From Chlorokybus atmophyticus (lineage: Eukaryota; Plantae; Mesostigma and Chlorokybus algae): a DNA stretch of 64,000 nucleotides. The stretch spans positions 354,805 through 418,804 of the forward strand of contig RHPI01001507.1 in assembly GCA_009103225.1 (NCBI GenBank), in the 5' to 3' direction. Of this stretch, positions 4,431 to 60,669 are shown one piece after another. Position numbers and translations under genes: made by a program. Each line of letters starts with the position of its first letter. Position 1 is the first letter of the stretch. The notes under the pieces are model-generated. The model worked only from the letters and a program-made list of their open reading frames with translations, was not told the origin of the DNA and made no database searches.

Positions 4431-4903
4431 TTTCACGCCAACATCAGAGACGGTATGAAGAGTGTTGTCTCAGTGGTTGAGAAGGCGTGAGTGCTGTTGG
4501 TAGCTCGGCACTAGCAAGACAGCGGTAGGTCGACAGCTGCTGGCGTAGGTTGGGGCCGCAGCATGGAGGAATGGAATGCGGCAGCCATGCGGGCTGCCGC
4601 ATTCCTGTGCGGTGTGCGTGGCTCCTGTCTGCTCCTGTGGTGGCTGGTTAGCCTGACGTGACGAATGAGCCCTGTCTTCCAAAGGTACGCTTCTTCCTTG
4701 GGCCCACTTGCCTACCGTCTGGCTGAGATGCCTTGTTGTCGCAGAAGCACAGACTCCGTAGACCATTGCACACTGCATGCAGCTTCTATTGCACCTGTAT
4801 TGGTATGTGTCTTATGACATGCAACGTGAGGATCTGTTGCTCTGCTCGCCTGTCAGTCAGTGCCACATGCGCCTATGTGTGCAGTAGATGTTAAGCCTAA
4901 CGG

Positions 4904-30500: not shown

Positions 30501-33500
30501 CTTCAACGCAGCAAATGCATGTTCCTCTGTTGCTGACCAGCTCCAATGCTTTCCCTTCTTGAGTAGGGTAGTCAAGGGAGCAGCTATGCGCGAAAACCCC
30601 ATGATAAACTTGCGATAATACCCCGCAAGGCCTAAAAAGGACATCACCTCCTTTACATTGGTCGGGGCAGCCCACTCGCGCACCACCTGCACTTTGTTGG
30701 GGTCCGGCTTGATGCCTTCATGCGACACAATGTGGCCTAGGTACTCCACCTCTCGAAGCAAGAATTTGCACTTTTGTAGCTGGGCGTACAACTTGTGTTC
30801 GCGCAAACGCTGCAACACGCGCCGTAGAAGTGCCACGTGCTCCTCCTTTGTTGTCGCGTACACCAAAATGTCGTCGAGGTACACGAGGACTCCCTTACCA
30901 ATCAAGTCAGCAAAAACGCTGTTCATAAGCGTTTGAAATGTTGCCGGTGCGTTCGTAAGTCCGAAAGACATGACCAACCACTCGAAGTGCCCATAACGTG
31001 TGTTAAAAGCTGTTTTCTCCACATCCTCGGGCGCGATGCGAATTTGGTGATAACCTCCAGCAAGATCAAGTGTTGTGAAGTACTGCGCACCTTGCAATTG
31101 CTCCAGCAACTCGTCGATACGTGGGAGTGGAAAGCAATTCCTCTTCGTGATGTTGTTGAGAGCTCGGTAGTCGACGCACATGCGCAAGCTCCCGTTCTTC
31201 TTTCGTACAAACAAAATAGGTGCACCATAGGGGGACTTACTAGGCCTGATGTAGCCTCTTTTCAGCAAGTCCGCCACCTGCCTCTCGGCCTCTTCCAGTT
31301 CCAAAGGTGACAACTTGTATACGGGTCGATACGGTGGCTTGTGCACGCCCTCAATCAGCTCCACACGGTGGTCTACGCTCCGTGGAGGTGGTAGACCAGA
31401 TGGAAGTCCGTCCACCATGATATCTTGGTATTCTTTAACAAGTTTACACACCTCGGGGTCCATAGTAGCCGTCTGAACATCGTCACTCAGCTCCGGTGCT
31501 GACTTTGCAGTGTTTTCGCGCACCACGCACAACCATGCAGCCTTTGCCTTCCGTGGAGACAATAACTTCCTCAATTGCACATAAGAGATCTGGGCAATTG
31601 TCGTACCACCTAATTGTGCGTGCCGCGCCTCGATGACGTCCGATGCAGCTTGAATGGACTCTCCACCGTTTCGCTCGATGGTGAGCACGCGCTTCCTCCA
31701 ATTGATGGCTGGATTATGTTGCCATAGCCACGGTAGTCCCAAAATCCCATCAAACCCGTTCCGTAGATTGATGCAGCAAAACCGCATGCTCTCCTTCATC
31801 TTCCCAATGCAAACGCACAACTCTTTGGTCATAAACGCAGCGCCATCACCTCCAGAGGGTGGCTCTCCATCAGCGAGCTTCACTTCACCTCCTCGTAATG
31901 ACGAAAGCCAACCGTAACGCCGCGCAATATCAATACTCATAAAGTTGCTGTTGGCACCGCTATCAATCATGAGCTTACACTCTCTCCATCGTCCTTGGTC
32001 ATCGCAAATGTGTGCTCGAAGCCCGAAGTACTTTGTTGTCTCCTCGTTTGCATAACTCACCACCATTGGCGCGTTCAAAGCCATCTCTTCTTGCTTCTTT
32101 AATGGAAATGTCACAGCATCCGTCCGTGCATGAGGCTCCTTCCTATCCCCAGCAGTAGCCTCCTCACCTACTGGGGGAAGTCGTTTTCCTGCTCCACGCC
32201 ATTTTGCTCCATGGTGTTGACGCGACGATCACGGCGAGGGTTGCCATCCGGTGTTGGCCTTTGCGTGCTTCGTTTGGGGCATCCGTACGCCAAATGCTCC
32301 GTCGACCCACACGCATAACACTTGCGCACACCTTTACCTCTTTCACCACGTCCGCCGTGCTTCGCCTCACTTCCATGCGTGTGTATGGCACCCACCTCCA
32401 TTGGTGCAGGCCCAGAGTCAGCTCCACCTCCATTGGCAAGTGCTGAACTTGGTTCTCCTCGTCTCCATGCATGTTGAAAGCCTCCCCGGGGCTGATCACC
32501 ATGCCTTTGCCTCCAGTCAGTGTTTCTTGTGGTGGACTTGAAGTACAACGCGTCGAGACGCTCCGCGATGCGTATAGCCTCCGCGAGTGTCTTCGGGTCC
32601 CGTAGCTCCACTTCTTTACGCCCCAAAGGTTTTAAACCACGTGTATACCTGTCCAACTGCTCCTCCTCGGTCATATTGGGTATGGACATCACCAATCGCT
32701 GAAACGCGGCCGTGTACGCCATCACCGACCCCATTTGCACAAGGGCTGCAAGTTTGTCGCGTGCGGCCTTCACGCTCTCAACGGGAACAAATTGATGCCT
32801 GACCTCCAGTGCCAACTCTTCCATGGTGGTCAATGGTAGCGCCAACCCGTTTGCAACACGCGTACATCGATGCCTCCACCACACAAGTGCTGCACCTTCA
32901 AGCAATGTCGCTGCAACCTCCACGTGCAGATGCGTGGGCACCTCCGTGAGCTTCAACCAAGACGATACTTGAAAAATCCATTCATCCACTGCATCTCCAT
33001 CACGTTGACCCTTGAATGGCTTGGGCTTTGGCACCTTCACATGCACGCGCGAGCTTGATGCCATGGGAATTTGTACACGCGCCATCGCATGCTCATACGC
33101 CTCGCGTTGTGCTTGTGCCGCCGCTTGAGTGTGATGAAGCTCTTCCCTCAGTGCCAAGATGGCAGCTTGAAGCTCTTCCATGCGAGCATCCTCCATCTCC
33201 ACTAACACACTACACTCCGCTTCCGAATGAAAAGTGTAAACGCCCACACACTTCCTCTCTCACCTTCGTAAACCGTGCTCCGATACCAGTTGTGACGGTG
33301 CTCGTGCCTTGTCACCTGTGAGTTGGTCCAATCCACAACCCTCTCACCAAGACACGGTATTCACACCGGAACCTTGCCCCCTCTGCCAAGCACACACGCG
33401 CGCCCCGCCACTCGCGTACGCACGCGCATGCGCTCGAAGCTACACACCGACTTGTGTAGCGCCTTGGATCGTCACACAAGCAAGCACACACCGGTGGGCA

Positions 33501-36500
33501 CACGCTAGCAACCCCTGCTAACCACCACCAAGCTTGCACACAAGAAACTAGGGAGCTAAAGGTTGTATTGCAAGTTGTAGAATGTCACTTTTATACCTAC
33601 CAGTCTGCACATGCTACTGTCTAGACGATTCTAGCGCTAGACGAAACTAGAAGCTAAGATATTCTTGCATAATCTTGTAGTAAACTTCTAGACCTTTCCA
33701 ACGCACCAAAGATCTCCTAATTTGCTGCTCATATGGTCAAGTTATACTACTTGGCGCCAGGCCCTTCCAGAAATCTGGTCGAGCCCTTCTCGACTGGCCC
33801 TCCGTTTTCTGGCACCTTCCGGACTGGTCTTGGGGGCCCGGTCGATATCCGCGGCAGACTCATAACTCGCCGATATCCGCCACAAGTCATTAAAAACATG
33901 TACCTTACAAATAAGGCCTAAGACGGCCATGAAAATCACAGAATTTGGCCTTGACTGTTACAATTGTGCACCTGCGCTTGACTGCAAGCTGCAATGTTTG
34001 AAAGTTGCCAAGCTTACAGTTGATGCTAGTTCTATAGAACTATCTGCTAACTTACTACCTGCAGGCTACCCAAGCAGTGACTCAACCAAAGCAAGCTCCA
34101 TCAGCACTGATCGAGGCTTCACCCTTGCCTGCAACAACCACCACAACAGCGTCGGCCCGACGCACCAGCCAAGTCTACCAGCCAACTACAACGTATAGGT
34201 ACACAAGCAGCAATACCAGTACTAGTAGTTGATCGGAGCACTCTCACCAATGCATTTCCTAGTAGGCTTACAGCTGCTGCTATTTGCAACCTTGCAACAT
34301 TGAATCTCACATTGCTCTACAGGTCTAGTGCTGTAACGTATGAGTTGCATGACACTGTGGTTGTGCCGTGGGCAGTTAGCGATGACGAAGACGATGAAAT
34401 GGATGAGGAGAGGAACGCCCACAATGACTTGGACGATGAACTTGAAGATGACGACGACAACATTGATCAAGATGATGTTGCCGGTCATCCTCCGGCAAGC
34501 AACGCACGCGCCTTTCTTGATGACATAGCTCAAGGTGCGGTTGACATGAACATAGTTTATGGCGCTCGGCGCATGTCACACTATCAGTAGTAATTGCTTG
34601 ATAACATGCGCTTGCAGTTGGTGGCAACCAACTGCCTGTGGCTGCGCGTCAACGCGCGCAAAGCACTAGACCGCCACAAGTGACCAGCGAGGTGCTGCTT
34701 CCAGCGCACACCCACACCAGGCCCATCGCCGCTCAGATTATAGCGGCGCGCGATCAAGCGCGACTTCATAGCAGTGCACGCCGTGACGTTGCAACACGCG
34801 TGCCTACTAGTGCAACTGAGCAGCGTAGCGCGCGATCTGCGTCAAGCTTGGATGTACTCAAGGACTACCTCAATACGGCAGGCAGCAATGCCAATCCCGC
34901 ATTAGTTCAACTAATACTTGTGAGTAACTGAGTGCGCATGCTTTGCACATGTTCACATGCAAGCATTGACTGTTGTATTGCTTGCAGCAAGCTCAAGTTG
35001 GAGCATCAGGGCTGGTGGCTTCAGCATGAGACGCCTCACCCTTGTCCTTCTGACTTGTGAAGGTCGTGCCGCGCCACCCTGCAGGTTGAGTAGTCGCTAC
35101 AATTCGTAGTCGCTACAGGCCCTGCAGGTGTCGCTGCTTCTTTACTGCTGAAGCATAGCGTGTTCTATCCAGATGAGACAGCATTACGGCAGGCGTTACT
35201 GACGGCGCTGGTCCTGCAAGGGTGTGCCCTGCATGAAGCGCAACACGCGGTCAAACCCGCGCTTGTCGCGGTGAGTGGCTTTTCATCATTATAGTGCGCT
35301 GCCTTGCAACATTAAATGCATTCTTCCCTTAACAGTTGTGACCCTTGCATGTTTGACAGGACGTAATGAAGCGCTTGCGCGAGCGAAGGGGAACCAAGTC
35401 GAACGAAATCCGCAAAGCTTTCGAGTACTTCTACCAGCTGCCTATGCTCTACAACGGTAAACCCACAGCCGCGCGGCTTGCACAGCTTGCGGCATTGAAG
35501 AAAGGTAAGGGCATGTACGCGTGTATGTCTTGAACTCAACTCGTTGACGTGCAAGGTTGCATTCAATGTTTGGAACTTTACAGATAGCGCATACCGCCGC
35601 CATGGACGCTGAGAATGGGGTGACGAGCGGTTCGGACGTTTGCTGCAAAAAGTTTGGTGCTCGCAGCGAGAAGCAGGTACGCGGTGCAGAGCTTCACATT
35701 CTGTTGCAGTTTTAGAATCTACGACCTTCATGTGGTAGGTGATGTACATTAACTAATATATCGCACAAAGGTCCAGCGCCAGCTGACATGTGGAGCTGGC
35801 GCTGGACCTTTTCAACTCTGATGTTTGCAACCTTCACTCTACATGAAAGTCCAACGCCAGCTGCACAATGTAAAGCTGGCGCTGGACCTTTCCAGCTCTG
35901 ATGTTTGCAACCTTCACATCATTTCAAGGTCCAGCGCCAGCTCCACATGTGCAGCTGGCGTTGGACCTTTTCAGCTCTACTGTTTGTGTTTACATAAAGG
36001 TCCAGCGCCAGCTCCACATGTGGACTCCCCAGGTTGGCGCTTGACCTTTTCAGCTCCGTTGTTTGCCACTTTCATTCGTGCCACTTTCATGCAATCCAAT
36101 ATCTGCCCTTAGGTGATGTGGAGCTGGCGCTGGACAGCGAGGAAGAGGAAAGCGAGGCGACGCCGTTGCGCGTAGCTGTCACAAAGGAGCAGCTGGCTTT
36201 CACAGTCGCTGTGGTAAGTACGTGATGCATGCTTGATTGAAACAAGGTTAGCAAAGGAGTCACAACACTTTGTAGGTGCGATTGCTCGCGTGCGAATGAA
36301 CTTCATGCACTCATGCTTCTTGCACAGGTCTCAGTTCCTTGTCAATCAAACCATTCAAGACAAAAAAGACCATGTTGCCTACTTCAACAAGGTTGTCCAG
36401 TATGTTAACAACACCCACATGGACACGCTTGAGATTGTTAACGCGCCGGCACTGCCTACTGTTGAAGGCCTGCCGGGAGGGGAAGGCGATCTTGAAGACG

Positions 36501-36920: not shown

Positions 36921-37662
36921 TGGCACAAGGGGTTGTGTTGATAACACATGCATGTTGCATCAGCGTTAGAAGTATATGACATGTGCATGCATCAACATCT
37001 GTTTTGTTCAACGTTGCACAACACCAACCTTGCATGCAATCAGTGTCAAAGCAATCGTCGTCAAGGCGATAGCAATTGCATGCGTGTGTGACATGTTAAC
37101 AACAGGCATTGTACAATGAGCACTCAACCAATGCCACTTCAGCAATCTTTGTTACTTCAATACAAAGTAGCGTGAGGCAGTGCTAATGCTATGTTGAAAC
37201 AACTCGTCTACACTTTGGTGACGATGGCAGGTAGTTAGGCCATTCTGTTCTTGTGTTCCATCCGGACCCAAATATCTAAGCTTACTTTCTGCTGCATGCA
37301 CATTAGCGCATGTGGAAATGACCGACAGGAGAGCAGAATGACCTGACAACTCAACTCTCTATGCATGGAACACGACACATAGCAACACCAGTGCAACAGA
37401 TGAGTCGTGTGCAACATAGTGCATGCTTCTGCGGGCAGCAAGGCATCCGAGCCCGACAGTGAGGCGAGTCAGTCCAAAAAAGAGCACGTGCCTACCTGCG
37501 GAAGTCAGGGCTCGTTCGTTATAGGCTGACCACCGCACAGCAGCCCGCCTTGCTGCTGCCCGCATGTGTCAATGCTGCGGCGGCTGTCGACCCGCCATGT
37601 CCTCATATCTCGAGCTATCCAAAGTATTTTCGCCGTCTACCACTAAGACAACGTGACTCTCG

Positions 37663-38967
37663 TCATACATTCTCTGTTGTTGGCGTGACATCACTCTTGG
37701 CTGATTGCGCCTGACGTGCCTCTGCAAGCTCCTGTTGCCAGCGAGTGAACTTGGGAAACCTTTTCTGCCAGGAGGCTGCAGAGAAGTGCAGAGCTGCAGA
37801 GGCTGCCTTGGGAATCCCATATTGGCGACAAAACAACACGCGGTCGAGCACGCTGTCTCTGCGCTTGAATGCCATCAGCCAGGTCGACACCGACCACGTG
37901 CTTCGCTCCACCTCCGTCACCTCAATAGCTAGCCGCTTGCAGCGTGTTTTTATTCGCCCACGCGACAGCCAGACAACCACTCCTGGATTATACATGAAAA
38001 TCTGCATGGCAAGGGGCCTGTTGCCCAGCCTGCAAGACTCAAAGGCGTCCAGAAAGGTCTCAAGCTTGGTGCGCACAATTGCATCGTTGTGGCATACTAA
38101 CTCCGGGCATTGTTTCAGCAACGTGACCATTTCTGCATGATCCACTGCCAAAAACGTCCGCCACGCAACAAACCGTGCAGCCACAAACTCCGGTGTGTAA
38201 TCAAGCATCTGAGCGCTGCGCAGCATAGTGCACAGGTCCTCGTCGTTGATGCTTAGAAGGGACTGGAGCCTCTTGAGGTTGTTTGCGAGAGTCTCGGGAG
38301 CGCGCTGTAATAGTGTATTCTGTGCCACTGCTGTCAGACTTACTCCAGGTATCAGCTTCCGCATTTGCAATGCGACACTGTAACCACAAGCACTCATGAA
38401 CTCATCAAGACATTCGACACACGACAAACCTCATAGATTCATCGTTCCAGCTCTTTGGGATTGCGGAAATGTGACTCAGTCTTGCCTTGCCTGACAAGCG
38501 ACGCCACTCGTTGTGACGAAAGTGAAAACCCCTCCCAGAACTGGCGCACAGCTTGCTGCTCGGCTTCTGACCATGGGGGCAACCGTTCCCATTGCCCGTC
38601 CACCTGTCTTGCCGACAGCTGGCAAACAGACACTGCTGAGCGGACAGTGCAAAGAGCTCCAACTTGTGAGCAAGCATCAGCATGGAAGGAACAGAAGGTC
38701 ACCTTGCTCCTTTTGTCAACAACAGCATCCTCAAGAGTCGTTGTGCCGCATGCAAAGCGCAGTTGTGCCGTAAGTGTGCACTGTATGTTTCTGCAAGCAA
38801 TGAAGTTGTAAGTGGCGATGACTTTCTCGAGTAAGACCAACTGCGGCATACAAAGCTGGGCCTTGCCTGTACAAAGAGTTGTAGCAGCACGGCGCAGTAG
38901 CTCTGGTTGTGGCAGCTCTCATGGCATGTGCAGGGGTCAACATCATGTCTGCACTGTAACACAACAT
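37663..38967 (-). CDS. mTERF-like protein (copy 2); last exon intact; start approximate
   Basis: 254-aa ORF 37663-38427 (KQCPELVCHN, MYNPGVV, VLDRVLFCRQ) colinear with copy 1; upstream ORF 38439-38849 has LPPWSEAEQQAVR. Confidence 0.6.
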
Positions 38968-40559
38968 GATACACAGTCAGATTCAACTGATCATGTCAAA
39001 AGCACGCTCTTGAAGAAGCATTGGAAGAGTTGTGAACAGGTTCAACCTTACAACCATCAAGGCACTGTCAGCAGCTATTTGTGTAGCTACTCATGCACGT
39101 TGCCGCCGTGTCACCATGACTGTTTGGTAGCCAATGTAATCGCATGTGACAACCTGGCCATGCGCGCGCCCGCGCACATACACTCGCTCTTGTATACACA
39201 CGCGCTAGTCAGCATGCCATGAATCGAACGTTGCTGTTTTCAAGTAATCAAGCTGCAAAACTTCCCCTGTTATTTCCAGCTTGACAGGCAGGTGCTACAA
39301 GCCACGATGCTGGTGGTATTGCTAGCAACGACCTGTTAACGATCGCCAATCTATCAATCAACTCGGTGACAACGGCTGACGACGAAAAAAAGATCTGTTG
39401 TGAACACGTAAGCTGATGGCATGCATGGCAAGCTACAGCAATTGATGCAAGGCTTTACACAGGTGATTGAGGCACATGGCGCTGACCAGCTGAGCCACGA
39501 TAGCGTTGTCAACAATGCATGTGCCCATCTCTCAACTTGTGCCCGAGCTGCCGGTTAAGCTGTCACTGCCAGCCAATGCATGCATGCTACCTAACGCATG
39601 GGCATGAGCTTGACTTGCAGAGCATACCTTTAGAAGATAGCAGCAGCTGTAACGTCAGCTCACAAGCCCCTGCCACGCTGCCCGCCCGTCGCTAACCACG
39701 GGAAGGATGCCACCCATCCCTTGGCAGTTGAAGCGGCAGACATGGTCAGAGATGACGCCACCGCCCGCGACCGGCACCCGCCGCTACGCCGCCCGCGTCG
39801 CTCATGGCATGGACAATGCCAAGGATTTTTTCTATGTTTTGCGTACTCTGATTGACCAACACTGATCTAGAAGAGCCCATGCAGCGAAGGCCGACAATGC
39901 CAAGATTTTTGACAACGATCCGTTTAACACTTGATTGAGCTGCGGGGGGTAGTGGCGGCGGCGCTGGTGGTGGTGGTGGTGGTGGTTGAGGGCGCAGTTT
40001 CCTACATCCATGTCATTGTCCGTGTTGTAGACTTAGTGGCCAGCGCCGTCGCGGGCCGGATGCAGCTATGCATCCAAGCATGTCGCCTACTGCAGCTCGT
40101 CAGTCGACGGTGGCAGCAGCTTGCATAGGATTTTGTGCCAGCTGGAGCCAACGCATCAGTTGTGCGGGGTCCGTTGTTGTGCAAACGGTAACTTGTGAAG
40201 CTTCATACAGCTGTTATAGATGTGTTGCGTGCTTGCCGACGGCTATCATGCTTAGAGTGGGCGAGCACGCAACAATTCAGCTACACGCGTGCTTGAAGTG
40301 CGCAAGCACACATGCTTTGAAGGCGTCAATCCATCACTTGCTTGACATGCAACCCTTGAAGAGTTGCATGTAGAAAATTATAACCGCATGCATGTGGTTC
40401 AACCTCGAGGGTTGTCCTGGCAATGCATATGTGCGTTGCCTGCTACAATATAAGTCTACTCTCAGCATACCATTTGTTTCGAAACGCTGGCAGCTGTTGC
40501 TCAACTACCAACTACTTGTTGACTCCGCTTAAACTCCAAGCAAGCACTGCTGATATGCC

Positions 40560-41050
40560 GAGTTGTGGCTTTGCTAGTGCAGCAATGTTGCCCCTTTTTA
40601 GCGTTACGAGAGCTGCCACAACCAGCGTCGTTGCACCCTGGTGGTATATCTCTTTATACAGATAAGGCTGCAACGGATGTAATTTCAATAAGCTTTGCGG
40701 CCAATACTTTTGAAGTTGTTACAATGCTTGCAGGCAGATATACAATGCACATCTGCGGCACAACTGCGCTTGTGTGCGGCGCAACAACTCCCGATGATGC
40801 TGTTGACAAAAGCGAGAAGGTGAGCTGCTCCTCCCCCAAGCCCACATTGTTTGCTCACAATTAAGACAGGCCCCTTGCCATGCAGATCTTCTTGTACATC
40901 CAACAGTGGTTGTGCGGATGTCATGTGAGCGCATCACAACACGCAAGCGGCTAGCTACTAAGTTTACAGAGGTGGAGCGAAGCAAGTGGTCAATGCCGAC
41001 ATGGCCGATGGCATTTACATGGAGGGACAACATGCTCGACCGTGTGTTGT
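40560..41050 (+). pseudogene. mTERF-like gene, copy 3, internally deleted
   Basis: 5' motif GATTPDDAVDKSEKVSCSS is joined directly to 3' sequence (GCCCCTTGCCATGCAGATCTT...ATGCTCGACCGTGTGTTGTTT) homologous to 37830-38030. Confidence 0.6.
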
Positions 41051-41639
41051 TTTATTGATAGCATGAGATTCGCATAGCAGCCCCATCAGACATGAGCTAC
41101 TCTGCAACCTATTGGCACAAAAGGTTTCTTGAGTTGATTTGCTGACAACAGCCGAGGCACGTCAGGCGCGATCAGCCAGCAGTAATGTCATGACAACATT
41201 AGTGAATACATGACGAGCGTATTGTTGTCTAAATGGTTGGAAGGCGTATTGCTGTTGGTAGCTTGAGATTGCAGGACATCGCTTATCGACAGTTGCAGGC
41301 TTCTGATGTATGCCGCCGCAGCAGTATGCAGGCATGTGGGTGGCAGCAATACGAGCTGCTGTGTGGTGTTCAAGGCTTCTGCACTCGCTTTGCTTGCTAC
41401 TGTGGTGGCTGGTCAGCTCATGATAAACAAGCCCTAATTTCTAAAAAGTAAGTAAGCGTTCTTGCTTGCACTTACATGGCTATCGGCTAGCGGCGATGCC
41501 TTGCTGTTTATGAAAGCATGCACTGTGTAGACACACTGCATGGAGCCTACCTATTGCATTTCTGTCAGTATGTGTCTTTGGGCATGCATAGAGGGTTGGG
41601 TCACTCTGCACTCCCGTAGGTCATTCCCACCTGCACCCA

Positions 41640-42070
41640 TGTGTATGCAGTAGAAAATAAGGCCTGGGAGTTGTGTAAAGTAAGGTTAAGTTGGGTTGGA
41701 ACACAACAACGCAATGCCCTGAATTCCTGCCGTGTCATGATGCATGCAATAATGTGTTCACATTTGCTGCATTTGTCCAGCTCGGACTACTTGACTGGTG
41801 CTGCTTACTGCATGTCCGCCCTTATCGTGGACGCTTCTACCTGTCTGTTGTAAACATTGGCAACATATTGGGGAAGTGAGTAGTGAGGATGAATATGTTG
41901 GCTTTCAGGAATGCGTGCGTCCATACACACGCGCGCGCGTGCGTGTGTGTGACCACACTTAGCTTGACAACAGTAAGCTGATGCTTTAGCTTGCTTCTGT
42001 TTTTGCCATAGGTGTGACAACTTTCTTCCAACATGCTGTTCCCCACGTCGGTTTTGGGAGGCGAGCATGG
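41640..42070 (+). pseudogene. Cys-rich gene B, copy 3, 3'-truncated
   Basis: LDWCCLLHV and CCATAG|GTGTGACAAC match copy 1; homology ends at ~42070. Confidence 0.6.
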
Positions 42071-45269: not shown

Positions 45270-45360
45270 TGTCAATGGTACGAACTGCCATTGCCACTGT
45301 ACAAAGGTACCATTTCAATTGTACCTGTTAACAAAGGCATCTTCGTACCATTGAAACGGT
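45270..45360. promoter_or_regulatory. GTAC-motif cluster upstream of the transposase and the divergent gene
   Basis: Five GTAC cores (ATGGTACG, GGTACCAT, TCGTACCAT). Confidence 0.5.
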
Positions 45361-46086
45361 TCAATGAGTATATATATNNNNNNNNNNNNNNNNNNNNNNN
45401 NNNNNNNNNNNNNNNNNNNNNNNNNNNNNNNNNNNNNNNNNNNNNNNNNNNNNNNNNNNNNNNNNNNNNNNNNNNNNNNNNNNNNNNNNNNNNNNNNNNN
45501 NNNNNNNNNNNNNNNNNNNNNNNNNNNNNNNNNNNNNNNNNNNNNNNNNNNNNNNNNNNNNNNNNNNNNNNNNNNNNNNNNNNNNNNNNNNNNNNNNNNN
45601 NNNNNNNNNNNNNNNNNNNNNNNNNNNNNNNNNNNNNNNNNNNNNNNNNNNNNNNNNNNNNNNNNNNNNNNNNNNNNNNNNNNNNNNNNNNNNNNNNNNN
45701 NNNNNNNNNNNNNNNNNNNNNNNNNNNNNNNNNNNNNNNNNNNNNNNNNNNNNNNNNNNNNNNNNNNNNNNNNNNNNNNNNNNNNNNNNNNNNNNNNNNN
45801 NNNNNNNNNNNNNNNNNNNNNNNNNNNNNNNNNNNNNNNNNNNNNNNNNNNNNNNNNNNNNNNNNNNNNNNNNNNNNNNNNNNNNNNNNNNNNNNNNNNN
45901 NNNNNNNNNNNNNNNNNNNNNNNNNNNNNNNNNNNNNNNNNNNNNNNNNNNNNNNNNNNNNNNNNNNNNNNNNNNNNNNNNNNNNNNNNNNNNNNNNNNN
46001 NNNNNNNNNNNNNNNNNNNGTGTGCGTGTTGCTGGATATGATGCAGGTTACATTGGCGACACCTGTGTCGACGTTAGTAGTGAGAT

Positions 46087-49000
46087 ATGGGAGTCCTTTG
46101 TGCGTATTGCCACATGCGCTTCGCCACACGCAGCTCGGTCTACATGCACATTATTAGCAGCAGGGTGTGCAAGCAGATCAAGCTGTATGTCGGCCAGCGT
46201 TCATTACAGTACGATGCGGGCCATGTTGAACCGGGGAGTTCGATCCAGGATGCGCACATGCTTGATGCTGAAAGATTCCTCTAGGAGACACACGCACAGC
46301 AGCAACAGGAGGAGGAGGAAGTGAACGAGGGCTTTCGATGTGTGCGTGTGCTTGAGAAACCTGTGGCACGCTAACATGGAAGTGGAGGCGTCCCTTCGCA
46401 CGCGTCGGAATCCAGGTGGTATGGCTCGGAGCATGCTCTTGCAGTGGCATTCGTGCAGTGCAACAACGGCCAAGGCCTGTCGGCCTCCGACATGGGGCGG
46501 ATCATCAAGTGCATCCGAAATGCACAATTCCTGACGGAAGAGCTCCAGTGGGAGACCGGTGTGCATGTGGCCAGCTACCTCCGGACCACAATTGCTTTCT
46601 GTCAGTCTGAGGTGTGTTCACGGTGTGCGGTGCATGTGCTTCAACCATCAGAGCGATGTCACATATGCACATGCGAGTGTGCTGCCGTATTAGAACTACG
46701 TGACGGCTGACCTGCGCAAGCCTGGAGACCCTGAGGATCAGGACATCAGCGTCACATATATGCCGGCCAAGGTCTGTGAAATGCAGTACCTAATGCAGTA
46801 TCGATGCAGTATCTATTCTGAGGCCAGCATAGTAAGTAATGCTCTTGGTCGGAGCAGGTATGGCTCGCGCGGTTGTATGGCAATCCACATGCCGCCAATG
46901 GCTTCAATCTCCAGTACAGTGGTGACGAGCACAGCTTTGGCCATCCTTCCACGGGCGATTGGTGGAAGGATGTGGAGGTGGATTTGAGGAGAGAGGTGGG
47001 GGAAGCGTCCTACTTGGCGCCTGCCATTCTGTACAATGGCCAGACCACGCTGGACAGTGCGGGCAAGCGCTCTGGCTACCCTCTGATGGCATTGCTTGCC
47101 AACTACAGTTGGGACATGTATGCTAGCAACATGGGGGTTGTTATGATAGCGCTTCTGCCGGTGGTTCACGCAGTGGTCGGGCATCCAACCTGGGCGCAGG
47201 GCAAGGAATCGTTCTCCGTTCGGAAACGTGAGATTTTTCATGACGCTTTGAATGTAGTGTTAGGGGATGTGAAGAGGGCGAGTTAGGAAGGCGTGCATCT
47301 CATCGACCCGAATGGCATCGAGCGTCGTGTGTTTCCCGCGCTTGCCAACTACATCAGCGATTTGCAGGTAGTGGGCATGAATGGTTGTAACCGGATGCAG
47401 CCTGCCAGCAAACAGTGCATGGAGGATGTTGTCAGTAGAACATCTGAGTTTGTCGTGTTGTGAGGAGACTGCCACACTCGCACGCACTGTGTCGGGCAGC
47501 CAAACACGACATCCTTGCGATGTTTATCTCGTCATCAAATCAGATCTGTTGAAGATGGATGAGGACCGGGAATTGAGAACCGAGGCCTTCTACACACCAG
47601 CAATTTGTCAGCTGCGGGCGGACCTGCATAGCGGTGTTAGAAATGCACGCCAGGCAGCCAAGGCTTTCGAAGAGCAGCACTCCATGCATGTCGAGGAGGT
47701 AATGGTCAAATTATCGGCATTCGCGAGGATGAATGGCTTTCCGTGAAACCAGGCAATGTGGTTTGGCAACAGAATGCACTGTGGGGTTGGCGACAGTCGC
47801 GGGTGCCGGGAGCTGACCGCTACTCTCGTTTTGCCCCTGACGCAATGCATGTGCTGGGAGGCATCATTGACCACCTGCTTGCTGCTGTGTACGACGCCGC
47901 AAATGAACAAATACGTCCATCCATGAGACAGATTCTGCAGGCCAGGTACGTCTTTGGTGTTGCTTTTGTGTTGAACACAAAAGCCAACGACATGTGCTCA
48001 CAAGCAGATGTGCACAAGCCGAATGCATGCAAGGCGACTCTGCGGGTTTCGCACTTCAAGGCACCCACAAGCACAGTAGATTTCTTCCTGTCCGACCACT
48101 CCTTTCAAGTGGTGGAGAAAGTGGCGGTGCTGCAGCTGCTGCCGGTCCTCGCAGACGGTTTGCTGCTCGACAATGAGGGCAACGATTTCTTCACCATTGC
48201 TGCCGCATCGCTTGCCCAGTGGAACAAGAAGTTGCTCAAGGCGCATGAACACACAAGAGAGACCCTGACCACAGCCGACAACGAGCTGGCTGCCTTCAAA
48301 GCTGCAGTGTTGCATCCGCTACTGTCGTCATATTCTGCACAGAAGTCAGGTTGGAAGATTGAGAAGATGCATCAGCTCACTCATTTTGGGCCGGCAATTG
48401 TCAGCAGTGGACACCCGGATTGGTTCAGCACCAATCGCATGGAGCAGACGCACGCCCAAAATATCAAACGGTGGGCGCGTGGTGGCAACAACCGGGACTA
48501 CCAGGCACGTATCTTGAAGGCATGGAGCTGTGCGGAATATGTGAGAGAGGGTGGCATGGTCGTGGATACCGAGATGCGCTCGGTCATGGCACAGGCGCGG
48601 CAGCAGTGCTGCAATGTCATGGAGAAGACAGACAAGTTGCTACGGATGGATGTGCTGACAAGGAGGGAGTCCAGCCCGTACTGGAGCGGATCTGCGCGTA
48701 GCCGCCAAGTCGCCTTGAAGACTCCATTCGCCGACAAGCTGCCTGCCACCCTGGACAGCTGGTTGAGGAGGGAACAACTGGAGTTGGCCGGCGGGTGGCG
48801 TGCTGTTCGCGTGGTGAACGGAGGCGCAGCGGTGTACATGACATCAGGAGTTAGCATGGCGCGCGCAACTGGGATGTTCCATGGGCGGCCTTGGTTCTCT
48901 ACACTTGAGTTGAAGGTGATGAGGACGGTGTGAACGTGACGTGGTGGGCTCAGGCACTCCTTTTTTTGCGCGTGGTGGTGTGGGGTGGTAGCGGCGAGCG

Positions 49001-49202
49001 CGTGTTGAAGGAGGTCGTGTTTGTCCGCTGGTACACGAAGCTGGATGTGACGAGCGACACAAAGTGCATCGCTCTGGAATGGGAAAAGCGTCGAGGCGGT
49101 CCACATCTCGATATCGTGACTCTACAGCAAGTAAAAGGCATTGTCCAGCTGCTCCCCATGTTGGACAAGGACAGCGCCCGTGTACAAGAGGGCAAGTATT
49201 AG
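46087..49202 (+). pseudogene. Plavaka-type transposase of element 2, inactivated
   Basis: CAYC..H zinc finger, GDWWKDV, YPLMALLAN, IFHDALNVVL, YISDLQ, PDAMHVL, KMHQLTHF, TNRMEQTH, FVRWY. ILYNGQT has G where the first catalytic D is expected; TAG at 47284; frameshift ~47743. Confidence 0.88.
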
Positions 49203-49432: not shown

Positions 49433-50215
49433 TCAAGCCTCATAGTTCCATGACACAGGAGGGTAGTCACAGCGCATATCCATTGTTTCAAGCATGAGAC
49501 GCCCTATGCACTCCGCCATTGCGGGAGGAACTGCATTCGCTATGAAAACGGCCGAGGTCATCCATGGCACTCCCAGCGCTGTTTGCCACGCAGCAATGCC
49601 GCCCCTGGTGCTTGGAAGGCCATAGACCGGGTACATCTGCTGTGGCGCGTTTAATGTTACGATTGTCTTCTTCACGCTAGCGGACAGGTGCGGCAATAGC
49701 AGTCCAACTGCCTTGCCCGCGTGCGAGCAGCGTGCTGGTGGGGTAGCTACCACTGGCTGTGTCTCAAACAGACGGTGTCGGAAAGTTGATAGGCCAAACA
49801 TCGTGCCACAAAGGGACAGATTGGGTCTGAATGAGGAAGCTGCTCCTGGCACATTCTCAATCACAAACTTGACCTGGCTTGCAAGCAGCAGACGTCGGAC
49901 GAGCGGTATCATATCCTAGTGTCTCCAAGATGTGCCATGTGCCGCCCGTTGAGGTGCCGGGATAGCACCTGAATAGGCTTGGCATGGTGGACTGGCCCAA
50001 ATGAGCTCGTACTCGCTCAGCTCTCCTGCACTCAGGGTGCATACATCGCGGTGTATGAAGGGCAGCGGGTACTCAGAGGAGGGACTTATGTCCATCCCGG
50101 TCACGTTAAAGCCTGCGTGGTATAGACCGACACTGGCACCGCCACCGCCGCAGAATGGGTCGAGTGCCCTTGGTCTGCGTGTGCATCCCAGCTTGTTGTC
50201 AAATGGCGTGTGTGT
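49433..50215 (-). pseudogene. Bacterial/phage-type DNA cytosine-5 methyltransferase, one nonsense codon
   Basis: Motif I ALDPFCGGGGASVGLYHAGFNVTGMDI, YPLPFIHRD, motif IV IWASPPCQAYS, motif VI VIENVPGA, LCGTMFGL, motif VIII RHRLFE, motif X ANAVPPAMAECIG. In-frame TAG at 49916-49918. Confidence 0.9.
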
Positions 50216-50624
50216 GTATCAAGGCTGGCCGTGGTGCTGGCCAGGGACTAACAATGATGCCGTCTGGGCTTACTTTGCGACTGACATTCTCCCCTCCGGC
50301 GCGCAGAACATGGCGTGCCCCGTCAACTGATGTGTACGCGAATACGTTGTGCCCTTTGAAGTTGATGGTTTGTGGTCGATCACCGTCATCGAACACTATA
50401 CGATGCTGCCCTGCAAAGACATTTTCCATCGCACCATGCATATATGATGCGTCTTCAATCTCGCACGCCATGAAGCGATGTTGACCTGACGCTTGCTTGA
50501 ATGATTCCACGACGCCCGCATACCATTCCCCATCCAGCGGCCAATGCACCATGACACTCACACCGATCAGCTGCTCGCATCCCAACTTAACTGCGTTCCG
50601 CAACCGATGCAGTGCGCTGTCCAA
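50199..50624 (-). CDS. Tudor domain exon(s), probably N-terminal to the methyltransferase
   Basis: Removing the 75-nt GT-AG intron 50411-50485 gives VHWPLDGEWYAGVVESFKQASGQHRIVFDDGD, a plant MSH6/PDS5-type Tudor signature. Confidence 0.75.
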   Translation of the reverse strand: MDSALHRLRNAVKLGCEQLIGVSVMVHWPLDGEWYAGVVESFKQASGQHRFMACEIEDASYMHGAMENVFAGQHRIVFDDGDRPQTINFKGHNVFAYTSVDGARHVLRAGGENVSRKVSPDGIIVSPWPAPRPALIHTHAI

Positions 50625-50769
50625 CGGTCGATGGTCTGCCTCCTCTACAGCGGCCTGGGGATGGAACTGCCCACGCCCACACCGTGCAAGACTGCTCCGA
50701 ATGCGACAACAGCTTCAACATGCATGAAATAAGCATACGCCCAACATAACATGCAGTGATACGTCGCGG

Positions 50770-51162
50770 TCCACTCTTGTGGATTACCTCCACAGCATCC
50801 GCCACCTGTCCACTAACCACATGTCCCGGTGTTGTCCATGTGAAGAAGCGCATGGGTTCCCCTCGCCACTCGAAGCATGAGCGCGAGCACGATTCGCACA
50901 CGCACTGCACGTAATGGAAAAACTCGGGTTCCTTGCACAGCACTTGGCCGAGGCGGCAGCCAAACACGTCGACATTGTGTGTGGTGTGATGCCAGCAAGC
51001 AGCACTAAAACCGTGGCACACTGTCTGCACTCGCTGGCATTCGGTCAAGTGTGCTCGCATTTGCTGCCTACGGCCATTGGCACATACGTACGCATTGCAT
51101 TGTGGGCACACCAAGCATGGTCTCCTAGGTGAGGGAGATTCAACTACTGCCGCCGACATCAT
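50770..51162 (-). CDS. Cys/His-rich zinc-finger-like exon upstream of the Tudor domain
   Basis: MMSAAVV..CLVCPQCNAYVC..MRAHLTEC and CVCESC within ORF 50587-51261; the splice link to Tudor is unresolved. Confidence 0.45.
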
Positions 51163-51299
51163 GAAAAATAGGACTCGGCACGGCTGCCCACAAACTGAGC
51201 GAGACTTTGAGGTATGGGCATCAATTGAGGGTTGCCAGCTTACGAACCCTAAATGGGCCAAACTTCAAGTGAAGCACGACTATACCTTATACGCTATTG

Positions 51300-51370
51300 C
51301 AGTACCATGCATGGTACTACATAAAAATGAATGGTACTCCATCTGTTAATGGTACTACAGTACAAGGATA
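51300..51370. promoter_or_regulatory. GTAC-motif cluster with perfect palindrome GTACCATGCATGGTAC (51302-51317)
   Basis: Five GTAC cores directly upstream of the minus-strand ZnF/Tudor/MTase unit. Confidence 0.55.
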
Positions 51371-51645: not shown

Positions 51646-52655
51646 TCAAGGCGGGGGCCAAATCACCGCCGACACGTTGGGGTCTTGCATCAGGCGTGGC
51701 GACCAAAACGGGTGAGGTTGCTTGCAGAATGGACACGCTTGTAGATTCTTTGATTTATTTGCCACAGTCTTCTGATGTGCTATGATGCAGACATGGCACA
51801 TCGCTTTCTTGCAACAGGGCGTCTCCCCATCCGCTGGGGGGGGGGGCTCTTCAATGCGACAAATCAGCACACATGGTGCACGCGGGTGTGCAAGCTGCCT
51901 CTGCCACCAAACTCTGTTATCGCGTCGCAGGCGTAGCGACTCCCATCTGAATGGCGCAGCATAACGCTCCACTGCCTGCTCGATCACCTGACGCCCATCT
52001 GCCGCCATACACCACCTGCTGGTCTTGGTGGTCTCGTCCAGCATGCGATCATCCAGGCCCTCGACATGGCTGTCGTTACTCGTGTACTCCCCCGCATCGT
52101 CATTTTCTTCGAGCTTCCACAGAATCAGCTCGACGTGCCGTATGACATACAGCCACTGCCAGCCAAAGCATGCCAAGTACACCTCGAATGGTTTACTTGC
52201 CACCCAGTATGTTTGCTCAGGTAGTGGCACACATCTCGACCCGCATTAGTCGACATCGACAGGTACATCTGCTGCAGCAGGTCGAAGTTCTGCTCCGCAT
52301 ATAGCTCTTGCACATTGCCGGGTTGCTGCGGCAGCAACAACACCATCATATCGAGGACGGCGAGGGGCAACATTGTACTACGGATGGCCATATCGTGTAT
52401 GGGTTCCAACCACGGCCAATCCCTAGAGGTCTGTTTAGATCGCATTCTCCGCGATTGCTCCCACTTATTGCAAACTGTCGTCACCCACCTCGAGGCATGC
52501 CGCATGCGGTAATGCAGCGCGTCTTGGGCGTACTGCAGGGTGATCAACTCCTTTGTACCACGAGTCAGCCCCCCCAAGCGTCTGCGCGTCGGTGCTTTGA
52601 GCTTGGGCAGCTCGTGCCGCACCGGCTGTTTCTCTGGACGATGCTGAGCAGCCAC
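51646..52655 (-). pseudogene. RING-finger protein (C-terminal RING-like domain), disrupted or spliced
   Basis: PCVLIC...TPCCKKAMCHVCI...ACPFCKQ in ORF 51646-52230; the N-terminal part lies in overlapping ORF 52125-52655. Confidence 0.6.
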
Positions 52656-52751: not shown

Positions 52752-54233
52752 TCACCTTTCCCTTTTGGGTCCTGTCAGCGTCCTTTGTTCCAACAACCTT
52801 CTTCTTTTTTTTTTGTCACCCTGCACATCCTGGCAGGCGCTCTCCGTGGCACTGTCACTCAGAGGAGGTAAGGCGTTATCTTCTTGCTCCACAGCCTTGC
52901 GCTTGTTGGTTGCCTCCCGTTCCTCCACGACCTCATGTTGCTTCATGAGGTCGAGCATGAAGCCTTTGTCTTTCAGCGCAGCTTTCAGGATACCTCGATC
53001 AATCTCTTTACCAACAAGACAGGCTCGGATCAATGTGGCAAGCTTAGAGGGAGAGGGCGAGCTACAGCTGCTTCTTGATGGAGATGCCTCCAGATGGTCA
53101 GAGTGCGGTGGCACGTGAGTCTCCGCGGCAGGAAGAGAGGGTGCTGAATTGGGATTGCGAGCATGTGGCTGTGGTTGAGGGGAGGCAGGATGTGCAGAAT
53201 ACTTGGCTACTTCTTGCCTAGCACACGAAGGCGAGGCCTGAGGCGTTGGCGCAGCACTCTGGGTCACAGCCGGTGATAGCCGGGAATTGGCAACGCCATT
53301 CCGCCACTCTCCGATCATGTGTGTTACCTCCGGTGGCACTTCATGCATATGCCACGACCACTGTTCGGTGCTTGCAGGCTTGAGAAGCCAAAAGTGTGCT
53401 TCTGGCTCATCAGGAGCAGTGTTGCCCACCACCAGTACTGAGTTGGGAACTTCTTTATTTCCAACCCAAACTGCGCTGCCGGGCCGTGGCACCCACTCCC
53501 CATGCTCGCGCTGCACGGTCATGCAGCCAATCAACAAGCCCAGCTTGTTGGCAAACATGGTCATCTGCAGGTGCTCGACGTACACATCTTTTCTCCGCAC
53601 GATCTGTCGCACCTTGGCCATGGCTAGGTCAATGTTGCAGTTGATATCAGCCAACATGGTCGCAGGCAGTTTGTCGTAATACTGCGCCATCTCTCCCGCG
53701 GCACCAGTGGCTCTGCAGAAGGCTAGGATTCTGCTCGCCATGCCTGCATCGACAGCCTTGGTGGTGATTTTGCGGAGAGTGTGCCCCCTGCCGTCGTCGT
53801 CCATGGTGTCCAGCACGGCCCAAAATCTGCTCGAGCTGGGGCACTTGTGATCATCCAGGACACTTTGCGCTATGGATGGCCTGGCGCGAAATACACAATG
53901 GTAGAAGCAATTACCATCCGTTGGCGCATTGAAGTGGTCCCATGTGGCAAGTTGGCCACCTAGCATGACTGATGGCCGTATGCGGGTTGCGGCCAGCTCC
54001 TCTGATGACTCGCTGGCAGGTGGTGACCCCTGCTGCATGCGCATACAGCACTCACATAGTGTGTCCAACTGTGGACGGCAAGAGTCACAGTGACTGATAA
54101 AGTACCTAAGTTTGGGACAGACTGCCGGCTTCAACTTGCAGCGGGTGGGGTAAGGTAGGTGCGGAAGCCACATCGGTTGTTGCATTATGCTGTGGTCTCG
54201 CCGGTGGCGGCAAGAAGGATTGTTGCCCCGCAA
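52752..54233 (-). CDS. OTU-like cysteine protease (deubiquitinase family); upstream exons likely up to ~56116
   Basis: APTDGNCFYHCV (catalytic D-x-x-C motif) and EAHFWLL (catalytic H) in an open 493-aa frame; basic KKKRRR C-terminus. Confidence 0.8.
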   Translation of the reverse strand: MRGNNPSCRHRRDHSIMQQPMWLPHLPYPTRCKLKPAVCPKLRYFISHCDSCRPQLDTLCECCMRMQQGSPPASESSEELAATRIRPSVMLGGQLATWDHFNAPTDGNCFYHCVFRARPSIAQSVLDDHKCPSSSRFWAVLDTMDDDGRGHTLRKITTKAVDAGMASRILAFCRATGAAGEMAQYYDKLPATMLADINCNIDLAMAKVRQIVRRKDVYVEHLQMTMFANKLGLLIGCMTVQREHGEWVPRPGSAVWVGNKEVPNSVLVVGNTAPDEPEAHFWLLKPASTEQWSWHMHEVPPEVTHMIGEWRNGVANSRLSPAVTQSAAPTPQASPSCARQEVAKYSAHPASPQPQPHARNPNSAPSLPAAETHVPPHSDHLEASPSRSSCSSPSPSKLATLIRACLVGKEIDRGILKAALKDKGFMLDLMKQHEVVEEREATNKRKAVEQEDNALPPLSDSATESACQDVQGDKKKRRRLLEQRTLTGPKRER

Positions 54234-55099: not shown

Positions 55100-55524
55100 T
55101 GTTGAAGGACTAGCATGCACATGTAGCTGAGGCAAGCATGGATGCACAGAGACAGAGCTACCGCCACCAGAGCATACACAGGTCACATCACATTCATCTA
55201 TTACAACTTGTCCGCTGGTTCTTATACCAGCCAGTTACACACACGTCTACGTTTGCAAGCACTGCGTAAGCTATACTCAGCCGTTTGACGCGCTCTAAGC
55301 TGTGTTGTCTTTCTTACAACCAGAGCTTTCCAACAAGCTCTTACACGCCTAATATGAGTAAGTATACGCGGAGATACCAAGCAGTTAGTAAGGCTCCAGT
55401 CTGGAGTCCGGAGTCTGGTCCAACGACGCCATCTTGCTAAGTCCGGACCTAGTGCTCGTCCTTACGACCTTCTACTCCTGTGTGGAGGGTCGATGCTGAT
55501 CGTATGTAGGAATGACTCTCAACA
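55100..55524. mobile_element. Solo LTR (425 bp, copia-like TGTTG...CAACA)
   Basis: TGTTGAAGG...CTCTCAACA flanked by 5-bp TSD CCATC (55095-55099, 55525-55529). Confidence 0.85.
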
Positions 55525-56184: not shown

Positions 56185-56335
56185 TCTATCGTACCATGCA
56201 TGGTACGACAGTGCCGTACAATGGCTGGGTTGGACGAGAGATGCCTCTGTCGTACCATAAATGTTACGACACAACCATTGTTACCAATGGTTGTACGAAG
56301 CATGGATAGCACGAATGCATAAGTCGTACCATCAA
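56185..56335. promoter_or_regulatory. GTAC-motif cluster with perfect 20-bp palindrome TCGTACCATGCATGGTACGA (56189-56208)
   Basis: Six GTAC cores between two divergently oriented cargo genes. Confidence 0.55.
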
Positions 56336-58250: not shown

Positions 58251-58744
58251 CTGGCACAACCGTTTGAGGAGGAAGAGCAAGCTCCGGCGTCTCCTCCACA
58301 GGCCCCAGCGCGTGGTGCTTTGTTCTGTAATGACGAGCAAAGCGATGATGGAGAGGAGCTGTAGCGCAGTTGGTAGTCCGTTTAGCTGGTAGTGTACATA
58401 GCTACAAACCTCTTGTGACTGAGTGTTGTGCATCTTAAACCAGCTCAGTCAATCGTCATTATGCTCATGCACATCAATACTTGCATCCCTAGGATATACA
58501 ACAGAACTGCATTCGAGTCACATAATTGAACTACAAGCCTTGGCAAGTGACTGAGAGACACTGTACACATTTCAGGTACATGTACACAGCACAGGCACAT
58601 AATAATGCTGGAAGTCAGTGACAATCACGTGTAGTCAAGCTATGCAAATACATATGACGACAGTTAGGCATTAGTCACCTTCAGTTGGTAAAGAATGCCT
58701 TATTTTGTCGATAATTACCTAGTTGGTGCTTGTGAATTTGGCTT

Positions 58745-59062
58745 AGTCGCCTGCGCTGGATTGGTGTGTAACCTGCAGGTACGTGTCACATAGGCTGAGT
58801 CACCTAAGTATGACTGATGTGTAACTTACAGGTGCCCGTTGATTAGTTGTAGTCACCTAATAAGGCCTGATGTGTAGCTAACAGTTGCCTGTAAATTACA
58901 CAAAGTCATTTGTTAAGGCCTGCTGTGTGACTAACAGGTGCCTGTTAATTATATAAAGTCACCTGTTAAGGCCTGATGTGTAACTAATAGGCGCCTGTTA
59001 GTTAGGCATAGTCAACTGTTAAAGACTAAATTGTAACAAAAAGGGCCTTACAGTAACGGAAG
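58745..59062. repeat. 53-bp subterminal tandem array (about 6 units)
   Basis: AGTC(A/G)-initiated units at 58745, 58798, 58851, 58904, 58957 and 59010; consensus AGTCACCTGTTAAGGCCTGATGTGTAACTAACAGGTGCCTGT. Confidence 0.9.
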
Positions 59063-60669
59063 TTACTATTAGGTCCCTGTATCAAGATTACAGGTGGCCT
59101 GAGCCACGACAGTCTAAATTAGTGTCCTCAGGTGCACGGCCGTTGCCAATTTTTAGTCGGCAGGCAGGGAAAACATATTGCGACGTCTGTTCGCATACGC
59201 GTGCACACAATATGCATGATAGGCAATGGTGCTGGACCTGCTTGTGCAAATGAAAGGTGTTCAAGTTACTGTGCACATGTGGGCATCAAACAAGTGTGCA
59301 TCCGCAAGTGATGATGAACAAAAACAGCACTTGCTACCTATATGTGCGACCACTCCGGTCTAATCTACATTGTACCACATTAGTAGTGGCACTTACTTTG
59401 TTGTAACTATCAACCCTGTTTCAAGACAGCGCCAACCTGAACAACAACCTATTCATTTACTATCGTTCGGGCCATACCACTCTTGCTTAAGAGTGCGTGG
59501 CAAGAAAACCTTCTCTGACATGTAACGCCGTTATGGCATGTGACGGATGTTGTGTACGCTCTCGTCACATATGTGCCATGCGCCCAATGACAACGAAAGC
59601 ATCAGTAGATTTCGCCAACGGTGGCGATCGGGCTGCGGCAAAACAGCTCGAAATTGGTCTAGATCTAGTCGCGCCTAAGGTCATTACGGCCCCCACCTTA
59701 ATACAACACCCCGCTCGAAATATAAGAGCGGGGGGGGGCGGGGGCGGTNNNNNNNNNNNNNNNNNNNNNNNNNNNNNNNNNNNNNNNNNNNNNNNNNNNN
59801 NNNNNNNNNNNNNNNNNNNNNNNNNNNNNNNNNNNNNNNNNNNNNNNNNNNNNNNNNNNNNNNNNNNNNNNNNNNNNNNNNNNNNNNNNNNNNNNNNNNN
59901 NNNNNNNNNNNNNNNNNNNNNNNNNNNNNNNNNNNNNNNNNNNNNNNNNNNNNNNNNNNNNNNNNNNNNNNNNNNNNNNNNNNNNNNNNNNNNNNNNNNN
60001 NNNNNNNNNNNNNNNNNNNNNNNNNNNNNNNNNNNNNNNNNNNNNNNNNNNNNNNNNNNNNNNNNNNNNNNNNNNNNNNNNNNNNNNNNNNNNNNNNNNN
60101 NNNNNNNNNNNNNNNNNNNNNNNNNNNNNNNNNNNNNNNNNNNNNNNNNNNNNNNNNNNNNNNNNNNNNNNNNNNNNNNNNNNNNNNNNNNNNNNNNNNN
60201 NNNNNNNNNNNNNNNNNNNNNNNNNNNGGGGGGGTAACAGTCACTGCAAGCGCCAATCTTAGCAATTGGATGGCTTCTCCTCGCGCCGCGCGGCCCGGAT
60301 ATGCAACTTGACGCCTGCAGTTCGAACGCTTCTCGTGAGTCCGCGCATTGGCGCGTAATGTAGTCGCTTGACGCGTGTGACACTTGATGTGATGGCGGCT
60401 TCTTTTGGCGGCTATCTTGACGCCATATTGACGCCAACAGGAAACTCAGACGCGATCACTCCAGACCTCGCTTAGTAATTTTCTGGCGTCGCATTCGGCG
60501 CGTCGCCTGTTACAAGCGCATGTAGGCCGTTGCATGGATCTAACTGCTTTCATGCAACAAACAAATGACACGCGTGACTCGTCACCTAACATGCGTAACT
60601 TTTTATTTTCGGCGGCCCCTTTGGCGACCATGTTAAGCATGTTAAATAATGTTTAAACGATAAAGATAT

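Follow-up and report, generated by a model that had tools for sequence, protein, structure and literature searches.

The locus studied here raises the question of whether a DNA transposon of the alga Chlorokybus atmophyticus carries its own cytosine methyltransferase, joined to a chromatin reader, and what such an enzyme would do. The window, by which we mean the whole stretch of 64,000 nucleotides that was analysed, is repeat-rich eukaryote sequence with Ty3 and hAT elements and, besides the Plavaka element discussed below, a second one. Our overall reading, to which we give an about even chance (0.5), is that one gene encodes a PDS5/RDM15-type Tudor domain followed by a virus-type C5 methyltransferase, that this gene is likely the cargo of a Plavaka element, and that its product is predicted to read methyl-lysine and to methylate nearby cytosines.

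Methyltransferase, Tudor domain and gene model

A compact C5 cytosine methyltransferase domain is located on the minus strand, as is the whole gene described here, at 50218-49433 (frame 50218-49436), where the six-frame translation contains motifs I, IV (PC), VI (ENV), VIII (RxR) and X in canonical order. The domain matched Pfam PF00145 with 22.2 bits (cut-off 22) and PHROG 363 with an E-value of 1.8e-24. Its AlphaFold model had a pLDDT of 87.7, and all PDB matches listed for the model were C5-cytosine methyltransferases (DNMT3, DNMT1, HaeIII, DNMT2 and kin); the PDB search gave no characterised close relative. Pfam, PHROG and fold agree with the initial annotation, which had recognised a compact C5 methyltransferase by these five motifs. 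By motifs and modelled fold the domain is a C5 methyltransferase, and its writing of 5mC is a prediction. Motif I has a Pro where the family has Leu, a Met stands after motif X where Tyr is nearly invariant, and the target-recognition (TRD) region is shorter than in the nearest relatives. A premature TAG at 49918-49916, between motifs IV and VI, is the sole stop inside the frame, in agreement with the earlier claim that a single TAG is the only lesion besides the frameshift. It is not among the window-versus-run differences listed (40 of 121), and contigs of the public runs may carry it too.

We compared the window with public contigs of three DNA runs (X1, X2 and X3) from two studies, representing at most 2 samples, which were about 2% different from it. 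Contig depths were about 90-130, those of variants 2.5-5.5, and we drew no copy number from them. The window copy has one extra base at 50217-50218, which shifts the Tudor domain out of the methyltransferase frame and is absent from every covering contig, the depth lacking it being 7.22 of 7.22 in X1, 96.4 of 96.4 in X2 and 131.1+2.5 of 133.6 in X3. Since all covering contigs are without the base, the window copy either suffered a frameshift lesion or was misassembled here. With the base dropped, Tudor domain and methyltransferase form one frame in contigs of all three runs; a search for their link in other copies thus succeeded, and the shared frame is present in other copies or strains. The initial annotation had expected that an extra AC in an (AC)5 tract would join the two domains. 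It was right about the resulting frame, and the repair itself was rejected, because the runs show one base fewer at the edge of the tract.

Sites with A/T in the window and G/C in the runs outnumbered the reverse, by 38 to 14 in X1 (p 0.001), 35 to 18 in X2 (p 0.03) and 42 to 30 in X3 (p 0.19). Such an excess is expected for a decayed copy, and the window copy is indeed dead and decayed. Within the listed 40 of 121 differences, all 4 in Tudor-core exon codons were silent; of those in the methyltransferase frame, 1 was silent, 2 gave the runs the family-typical residue and 1 was in the linker. We counted the silent Tudor-core changes and the family-typical residues as probable signs of constraint.

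When base 50217/50218 is dropped, the gene model from ATG 51162 comprises three exons and 510 codons in the order Cys-rich region, Tudor, linker and methyltransferase, with the cage Trp at codon 167, motif I at codon 269 and the internal stop at codon 350. Between codons 164 and 291 the model lacks a Met, so that the methyltransferase would have no start of its own before motif I. Predicted exon 1 (50788-51162), the ORF from this ATG, encodes a 125-codon Cys/His-rich, putatively metal-binding region, which had no Pfam or PHROG match and falls in no known family; the Atlas gave leads only for this part and for the Tudor part, with recognition under 2300. A 121-nt GT-AG intron at 50667-50787 is predicted after it from the sequence only; an alternative acceptor at 50655 was rejected, its AG being missing in the runs. 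The gene is likely of 510 codons and three exons, with the Cys-rich region as a further first exon.

Predicted exon 2 (50486-50666; phase-0 acceptor at 50667) encodes the N-terminal half of a PDS5/RDM15-type Tudor domain, and the start of predicted exon 3 (50219-50410) encodes its C-terminal half and the linker to the methyltransferase. Both halves matched PDB 7DE9, and they are separated by a 75-nt GT-AG intron (50411-50485), again a sequence-based prediction. Left unspliced, the domain had no Pfam match even at E 1 and matched 7DE9 in two pieces (E 5.6e-5). This structure shows the Tudor domain of Arabidopsis RDM15/PDS5C with H3K4me1, with a cage of W616, Y623 and Y641 plus D643 and D645, and with E647 in contact with H3R2; RDM15 acts in a silencing pathway, according to the available text of the report (PMC8184781). 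After removal of 50485-50411, the residues W, Y, F, D and D stand at the RDM15 cage spacing. The 18-residue spacing was found in RDM15 and in 15/15 homologue repeats, which had been chosen by a pattern allowing 17-20. A profile of homologue repeats, built from the matches of this same Tudor query, gave the spliced version 56.4 bits in one domain and the unspliced version 41.4 + 7.3. The query matched 45 proteins of Tudor type at E<=0.001; of the nine that were domain-scanned, seven had a PTM/DIR17-like Tudor, one a weaker Tudor model and one was unrelated, and a methylase domain was found in 0/9.

The window Tudor domain resembles that of RDM15 in fold, aromatic cage and the two Asp residues, but it has Phe for Tyr641 and Pro in place of Glu647, and it is fused to a methyltransferase. 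Owing to this Pro, its H3K4me1 specificity is uncertain. The matches and the cage regained by splicing bear out the earlier description of a plant-type Tudor domain with an intron upstream of the methyltransferase. By sequence comparison the domain is of PDS5/RDM15 type, and methyl-lysine histone binding is predicted. Because the 75-nt segment is in frame and stop-free, it may be a coding insert rather than an intron. There are also eight YAG acceptors between 50400 and 50175, so that the Tudor domain could be left out or shortened by splicing. The two ends of the segment 50411-50485 resemble each other, a hint that a short duplication gave rise to the intron.

Relatives of the methyltransferase

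The compact family is large, as the methyltransferase query matched 4386 proteins at E<=0.001. Among them were 309 phage records with <60% identity, the best 30 at 36-40%, and the best non-tandem matches, 300-440 aa long, formed a subgroup. Of the 120 homologues listed, 5 had an MBD inserted in the target-recognition region, and one cluster with this insert includes Klebsormidium nitens GAQ92615.1. To a second group of relatives belongs a full-length protein encoded on a contig of a giant-virus MAG (L161), 1 of 80 loci. The motifs YP[VI]YG, RG..W and DY.P are all present in the window enzyme; each was found in 6/6 of the MBD group, and they occurred in 14, 15 and 0 of 15 giant-virus-like proteins and in 0, 5 and 0 of 97 other matches, respectively. 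A fourth subgroup pattern, after motif IV, is missing from the window enzyme. A profile of the 6 MBD members scored the window at 250.6 bits, whereas profiles of six members drawn at random from the other groups gave 198-230 and 204-224 bits.

A tree of 48 selected rows placed the window enzyme, the MBD group and the giant-virus-like group on one side (75/89, unstarred), and a quick 102-row tree gave a support of 81 and left the fork open. These trees included no eukaryotic DNMT; in structural alignments, DNMT3 and DNMT1 had 12-20% identity to the methyltransferase model. The homologues found were phage, giant-virus and metagenomic proteins, and the ancestral eukaryotic DNMT clades (DNMT1/CMT/DNMT3/DRM/DNMT5) were not the best relatives. 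The initial annotation had called it phage-type, distinct from DNMT1, DNMT3 and CMT, and close to actinophage enzymes. The placement in a phage/virus family stood, and the closeness to actinophages was rejected, given identities of 36-40% and the lack of the shared subgroup motifs. The nearest relatives appear to be a giant-virus/algal subgroup of the compact phage/virus family, with weak tree support.

Of 120 homologues of similar length and 11 longer ones, none joined a Tudor domain to a methyltransferase. ORFs similar to the Tudor, Cys-rich, RING-like, OTU-like or transposase ORFs of the window were found near 0/160 methyltransferase loci at E 0.01, and metagenome and viral scans with the family alignment returned generic phage-type members only. 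The enzymes with an MBD in the TRD (P0003-P0006, P0012, P0030 and P0135) could be DNA-read, DNA-write enzymes; a literature search found no paper on such C5 methyltransferases, and no viral locus was found for P0004. The K. nitens protein is tandemly doubled and lies beside a HIT-like ORF. Two further proteins caught our attention. P0131 (NCBI MDC0525347.1, labelled bacterium) is a Ty3-type Pol with a distant compact methyltransferase between RNase H and integrase (E 4.9e-4), not DNMT3-like by motifs, and P0123 (Pithovirus LCPAC201) combines two different C5-methyltransferase domains, of which the first belongs to the compact family.

The Plavaka element and its probable cargo

The methyltransferase gene lies tail-to-tail with a transposase pseudogene of the Plavaka (CMCT-clade) type at 46356-49202 on the plus strand, with 231 bp between the transposase stop at 49202 and the methyltransferase stop. 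This confirms the arrangement first noticed in the sequence, as PF18759 was matched at 46840-47283 (+) with 41.1 bits, above its cut-off of 26.3. The pseudogene has introns, stops and frameshifts, and its 5' end is by the N gap 45378-46019. A three-frame view contains an HxxxH motif and a later Glu, and an H(3-4)H motif is described for Plavaka transposases (PMC12730594, available text). A search with the 430-aa transposase ORF gave homologues in 0/7174 candidates. A second, distant Plavaka-like transposase pseudogene is located at 26325-21785 on the minus strand (PF18759, E 1.6e-5), with no methyltransferase nearby.

We searched for termini of the form CA..TG or TGT..ACA with a 2-3 bp target duplication that enclose the methyltransferase gene. 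None was convincing: there were 201 pairs at >=13/18, and the best (16/18) had no target duplication. The likely element ends abut N gaps, at 45378-46019 and 59749-60227. In the public runs, 15/79 contigs of X2 and 83/219 of X3 were <95% alike to the window. One X1 contig covers the transposase end, the methyltransferase and the Tudor domain, and depth is continuous from the transposase into the cargo. In one X2 contig, 49066 is joined through a 4-nt microhomology to a 27/27 match of 55100-55126; this single contig points to a unit with both transposase and cargo, of which one copy lost internal sequence. We consider it probable that the methyltransferase gene is cargo of the adjacent Plavaka element.

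Two neighbouring minus-strand ORFs may belong to the same cargo. The ORF at 51649-52245 ends in a weakly supported RING-like finger (zf-C3HC4, E 0.48; RING 2ECW, E 0.09). The 493-aa ORF at 52755-54233 has a weak match to viral L-protein N-terminal chains (E 0.5) and a Cys/His motif that we take to be OTU-like. A motif search found four GTACCAT/ATGGTAC motifs at 51302-51355, 140-190 nt upstream of the predicted start, and further clusters upstream of predicted genes at 45275-45351, 56191-56332 and 350-437; the clusters are thus placed on the transposase side, before the Tudor-methyltransferase gene and at 56191-56332. One such cluster arose in 1/100 Markov simulations. The clusters at 51302 and 56191 contain a perfect 16-nt palindrome, a possible promoter or protein-binding motif. 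Near the possible right element end there is a 53-bp tandem repeat of about 4 copies (58814-59048), and one X3 contig has a loose end similar to 58419-58447. Elsewhere in the window we noticed a near-intact Ty3 LTR retrotransposon (27912-33962), whose 674-nt LTRs are 99.6% identical, as after a recent insertion, and an mTERF-like repeat family with several copies (70-77%, both orientations) at 1010-4943 and 37224-41654.

Predicted role, alternatives and known systems

In the reading that we prefer, an enzyme of the compact phage/giant-virus family would have gained introns and a Tudor domain from a plant-type chromatin protein, giving a protein of 510 residues. In transcribed chromatin, the Tudor domain would dock on nucleosomes of the H3K4me1 type, and the enzyme would methylate the DNA of the element itself or newly inserted DNA, leaving a gene-body-like mark under which the element persists. 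The available text of PMC5890265 reports that in K. nitens CG methylation lies on active gene bodies and CHG and CHH methylation on silent elements, and that retrotransposon DNMTs methylate CG de novo, with in vivo support for self-methylation. By analogy with both, the Tudor domain would direct the enzyme to chromatin of the H3K4me1 type, letting the element mark itself. Such docking and self-methylation, as an aid to persistence, seem the likeliest job of the protein, a tentative view whose chances we put somewhat below even. The C-to-T differences between window and runs had no CG, CHG or CHH bias, and CpG depletion (0.75) equalled the window average (0.78), so that no footprint of self-methylation is visible.

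The same anatomy would also fit an active fusion that is turned outward and methylates host or rival-element chromatin, in competition or as self-limiting silencing, like the N4CMT of rotifers. N4CMT is reported to use its chromodomain for marking active transposons (PMC8885841, available text), and RDM15 belongs to a silencing pathway. Yet selection on the cargo of a selfish element would be expected to favour a benefit in cis, and it is self-methylation that has in vivo support among the retrotransposon DNMTs; we regard the outward role as improbable. More doubtful still is that the methyltransferase, RING-like and OTU-like genes are the remnant of an endogenous giant virus, or of another element, beside a Plavaka insertion. 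Two predicted introns and a plant-type Tudor domain are at odds with it, as are the continuous depth, the contig that links the 3' part of the transposase to 55100, and a Pfam scan of 139 window ORFs that found no virus core gene, whereas the close relative on the giant-virus contig, the element ends that were not found and the second Plavaka copy without a methyltransferase speak in its favour.

It could also be that the cargo is passive, with a methyltransferase that is inactive or broken throughout the family, and that only the Tudor domain, or nothing, mattered. The TAG that is not among the listed differences, the Pro and Met substitutions and the short TRD region would agree with this; the catalytic Cys, ENV and RxR are nevertheless intact and the runs have family-typical residues at two of the window's deviations, and we give this explanation little credence. 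A wider proposal starts from the reading of the gene product as a transposon-built histone-read, DNA-write enzyme for self-marking, assembled from an H3K4me1-type Tudor domain and a C5 methyltransferase of giant-virus type. The compact family would then have been fitted repeatedly with targeting modules (Tudor here, MBD in the Klebsormidium type, a Ty3 Pol in P0131) and would be an unrecognised, recurrent source of eukaryotic writers. We hold this to be rather unlikely in its full extent.

The DNMTs known from transposons are related to DNMT3 or DNMT4 and reside in retroelements, and known Plavaka cargo consists of TET/JBP or of an adenine methylase with SET. If our reading is true, this DNA transposon, with its virus-type C5 enzyme joined to a reader of an active-chromatin mark, would catch in the act a step by which eukaryotic DNMTs gain chromatin readers. 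An enzyme of only 510 aa would offer a testable case for why transposons carry methylation writers, and the relatives with an MBD insert hint at a counterpart in the compact family that would both read and write on DNA.

The systems compared here are described as far as the available text of each source goes. Fungal Plavaka elements carry TET/JBP (PMC12730594), and giant repeats of Amoebidium are flanked by Plavaka (PMC11244446). The giant Plavaka elements of the red alga Bostrychia, of 17-19 kb, carry PAG2 (bioRxiv 10.1101/2025.02.11.637652) and are alike in combining a Plavaka transposase with accessory genes, one of which is a DNA methylase with a chromatin domain; PAG2, however, joins a methylase of the N6-adenine type (PF01555) to a SET writer, whereas the window has a C5-cytosine enzyme with a Tudor reader. 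The initial annotation knew of no such arrangement in Plavaka. This holds for a C5 methyltransferase or a Tudor-methyltransferase fusion, neither of which was found in our literature search (most subscription journals and Repbase being outside its coverage), but not for a methylase with a chromatin domain, given the red-algal elements.

Mobile elements with their own C5 methyltransferase are known as SymbioLINE-Dnmt, SymbioDIRS-Dnmt3 and KnitGypsy-Dnmt3 (PMC5890265), and EpiLTRs combine a DNMT with a chromodomain (bioRxiv 10.64898/2026.05.21.726589). They differ in being retroelements, with enzymes that are DNMT3-like or sister to DNMT4 and with the chromodomain of Pol as reader. Mariner-1_OLpv of a phycodnavirus (PMC3627910) is likewise a DNA transposon with a C5 methylase, but it resides within a virus genome and is paired with an endonuclease, and its available description gives no introns or reader. 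The N4CMT of bdelloid rotifers (PMC8885841) shares the union of a foreign methyltransferase with a histone reader into a histone-read, DNA-write protein; it is a 4mC enzyme with a chromodomain and a domesticated host gene, not transposon cargo. According to PMC12344493, orphan DNMTs that derive from viruses as a rule have no companion domains. The compact family itself (PHROG 363, with mycobacteriophage, Pithovirus and K. nitens members) has 36-48% identity to the window enzyme and a common short TRD and C-terminal motifs; no member was seen with a Tudor domain, and the nearest have an MBD or other TRD insert, unlike the window enzyme. The locus is therefore a new combination within the known theme of a transposon-borne methylase with a chromatin domain.
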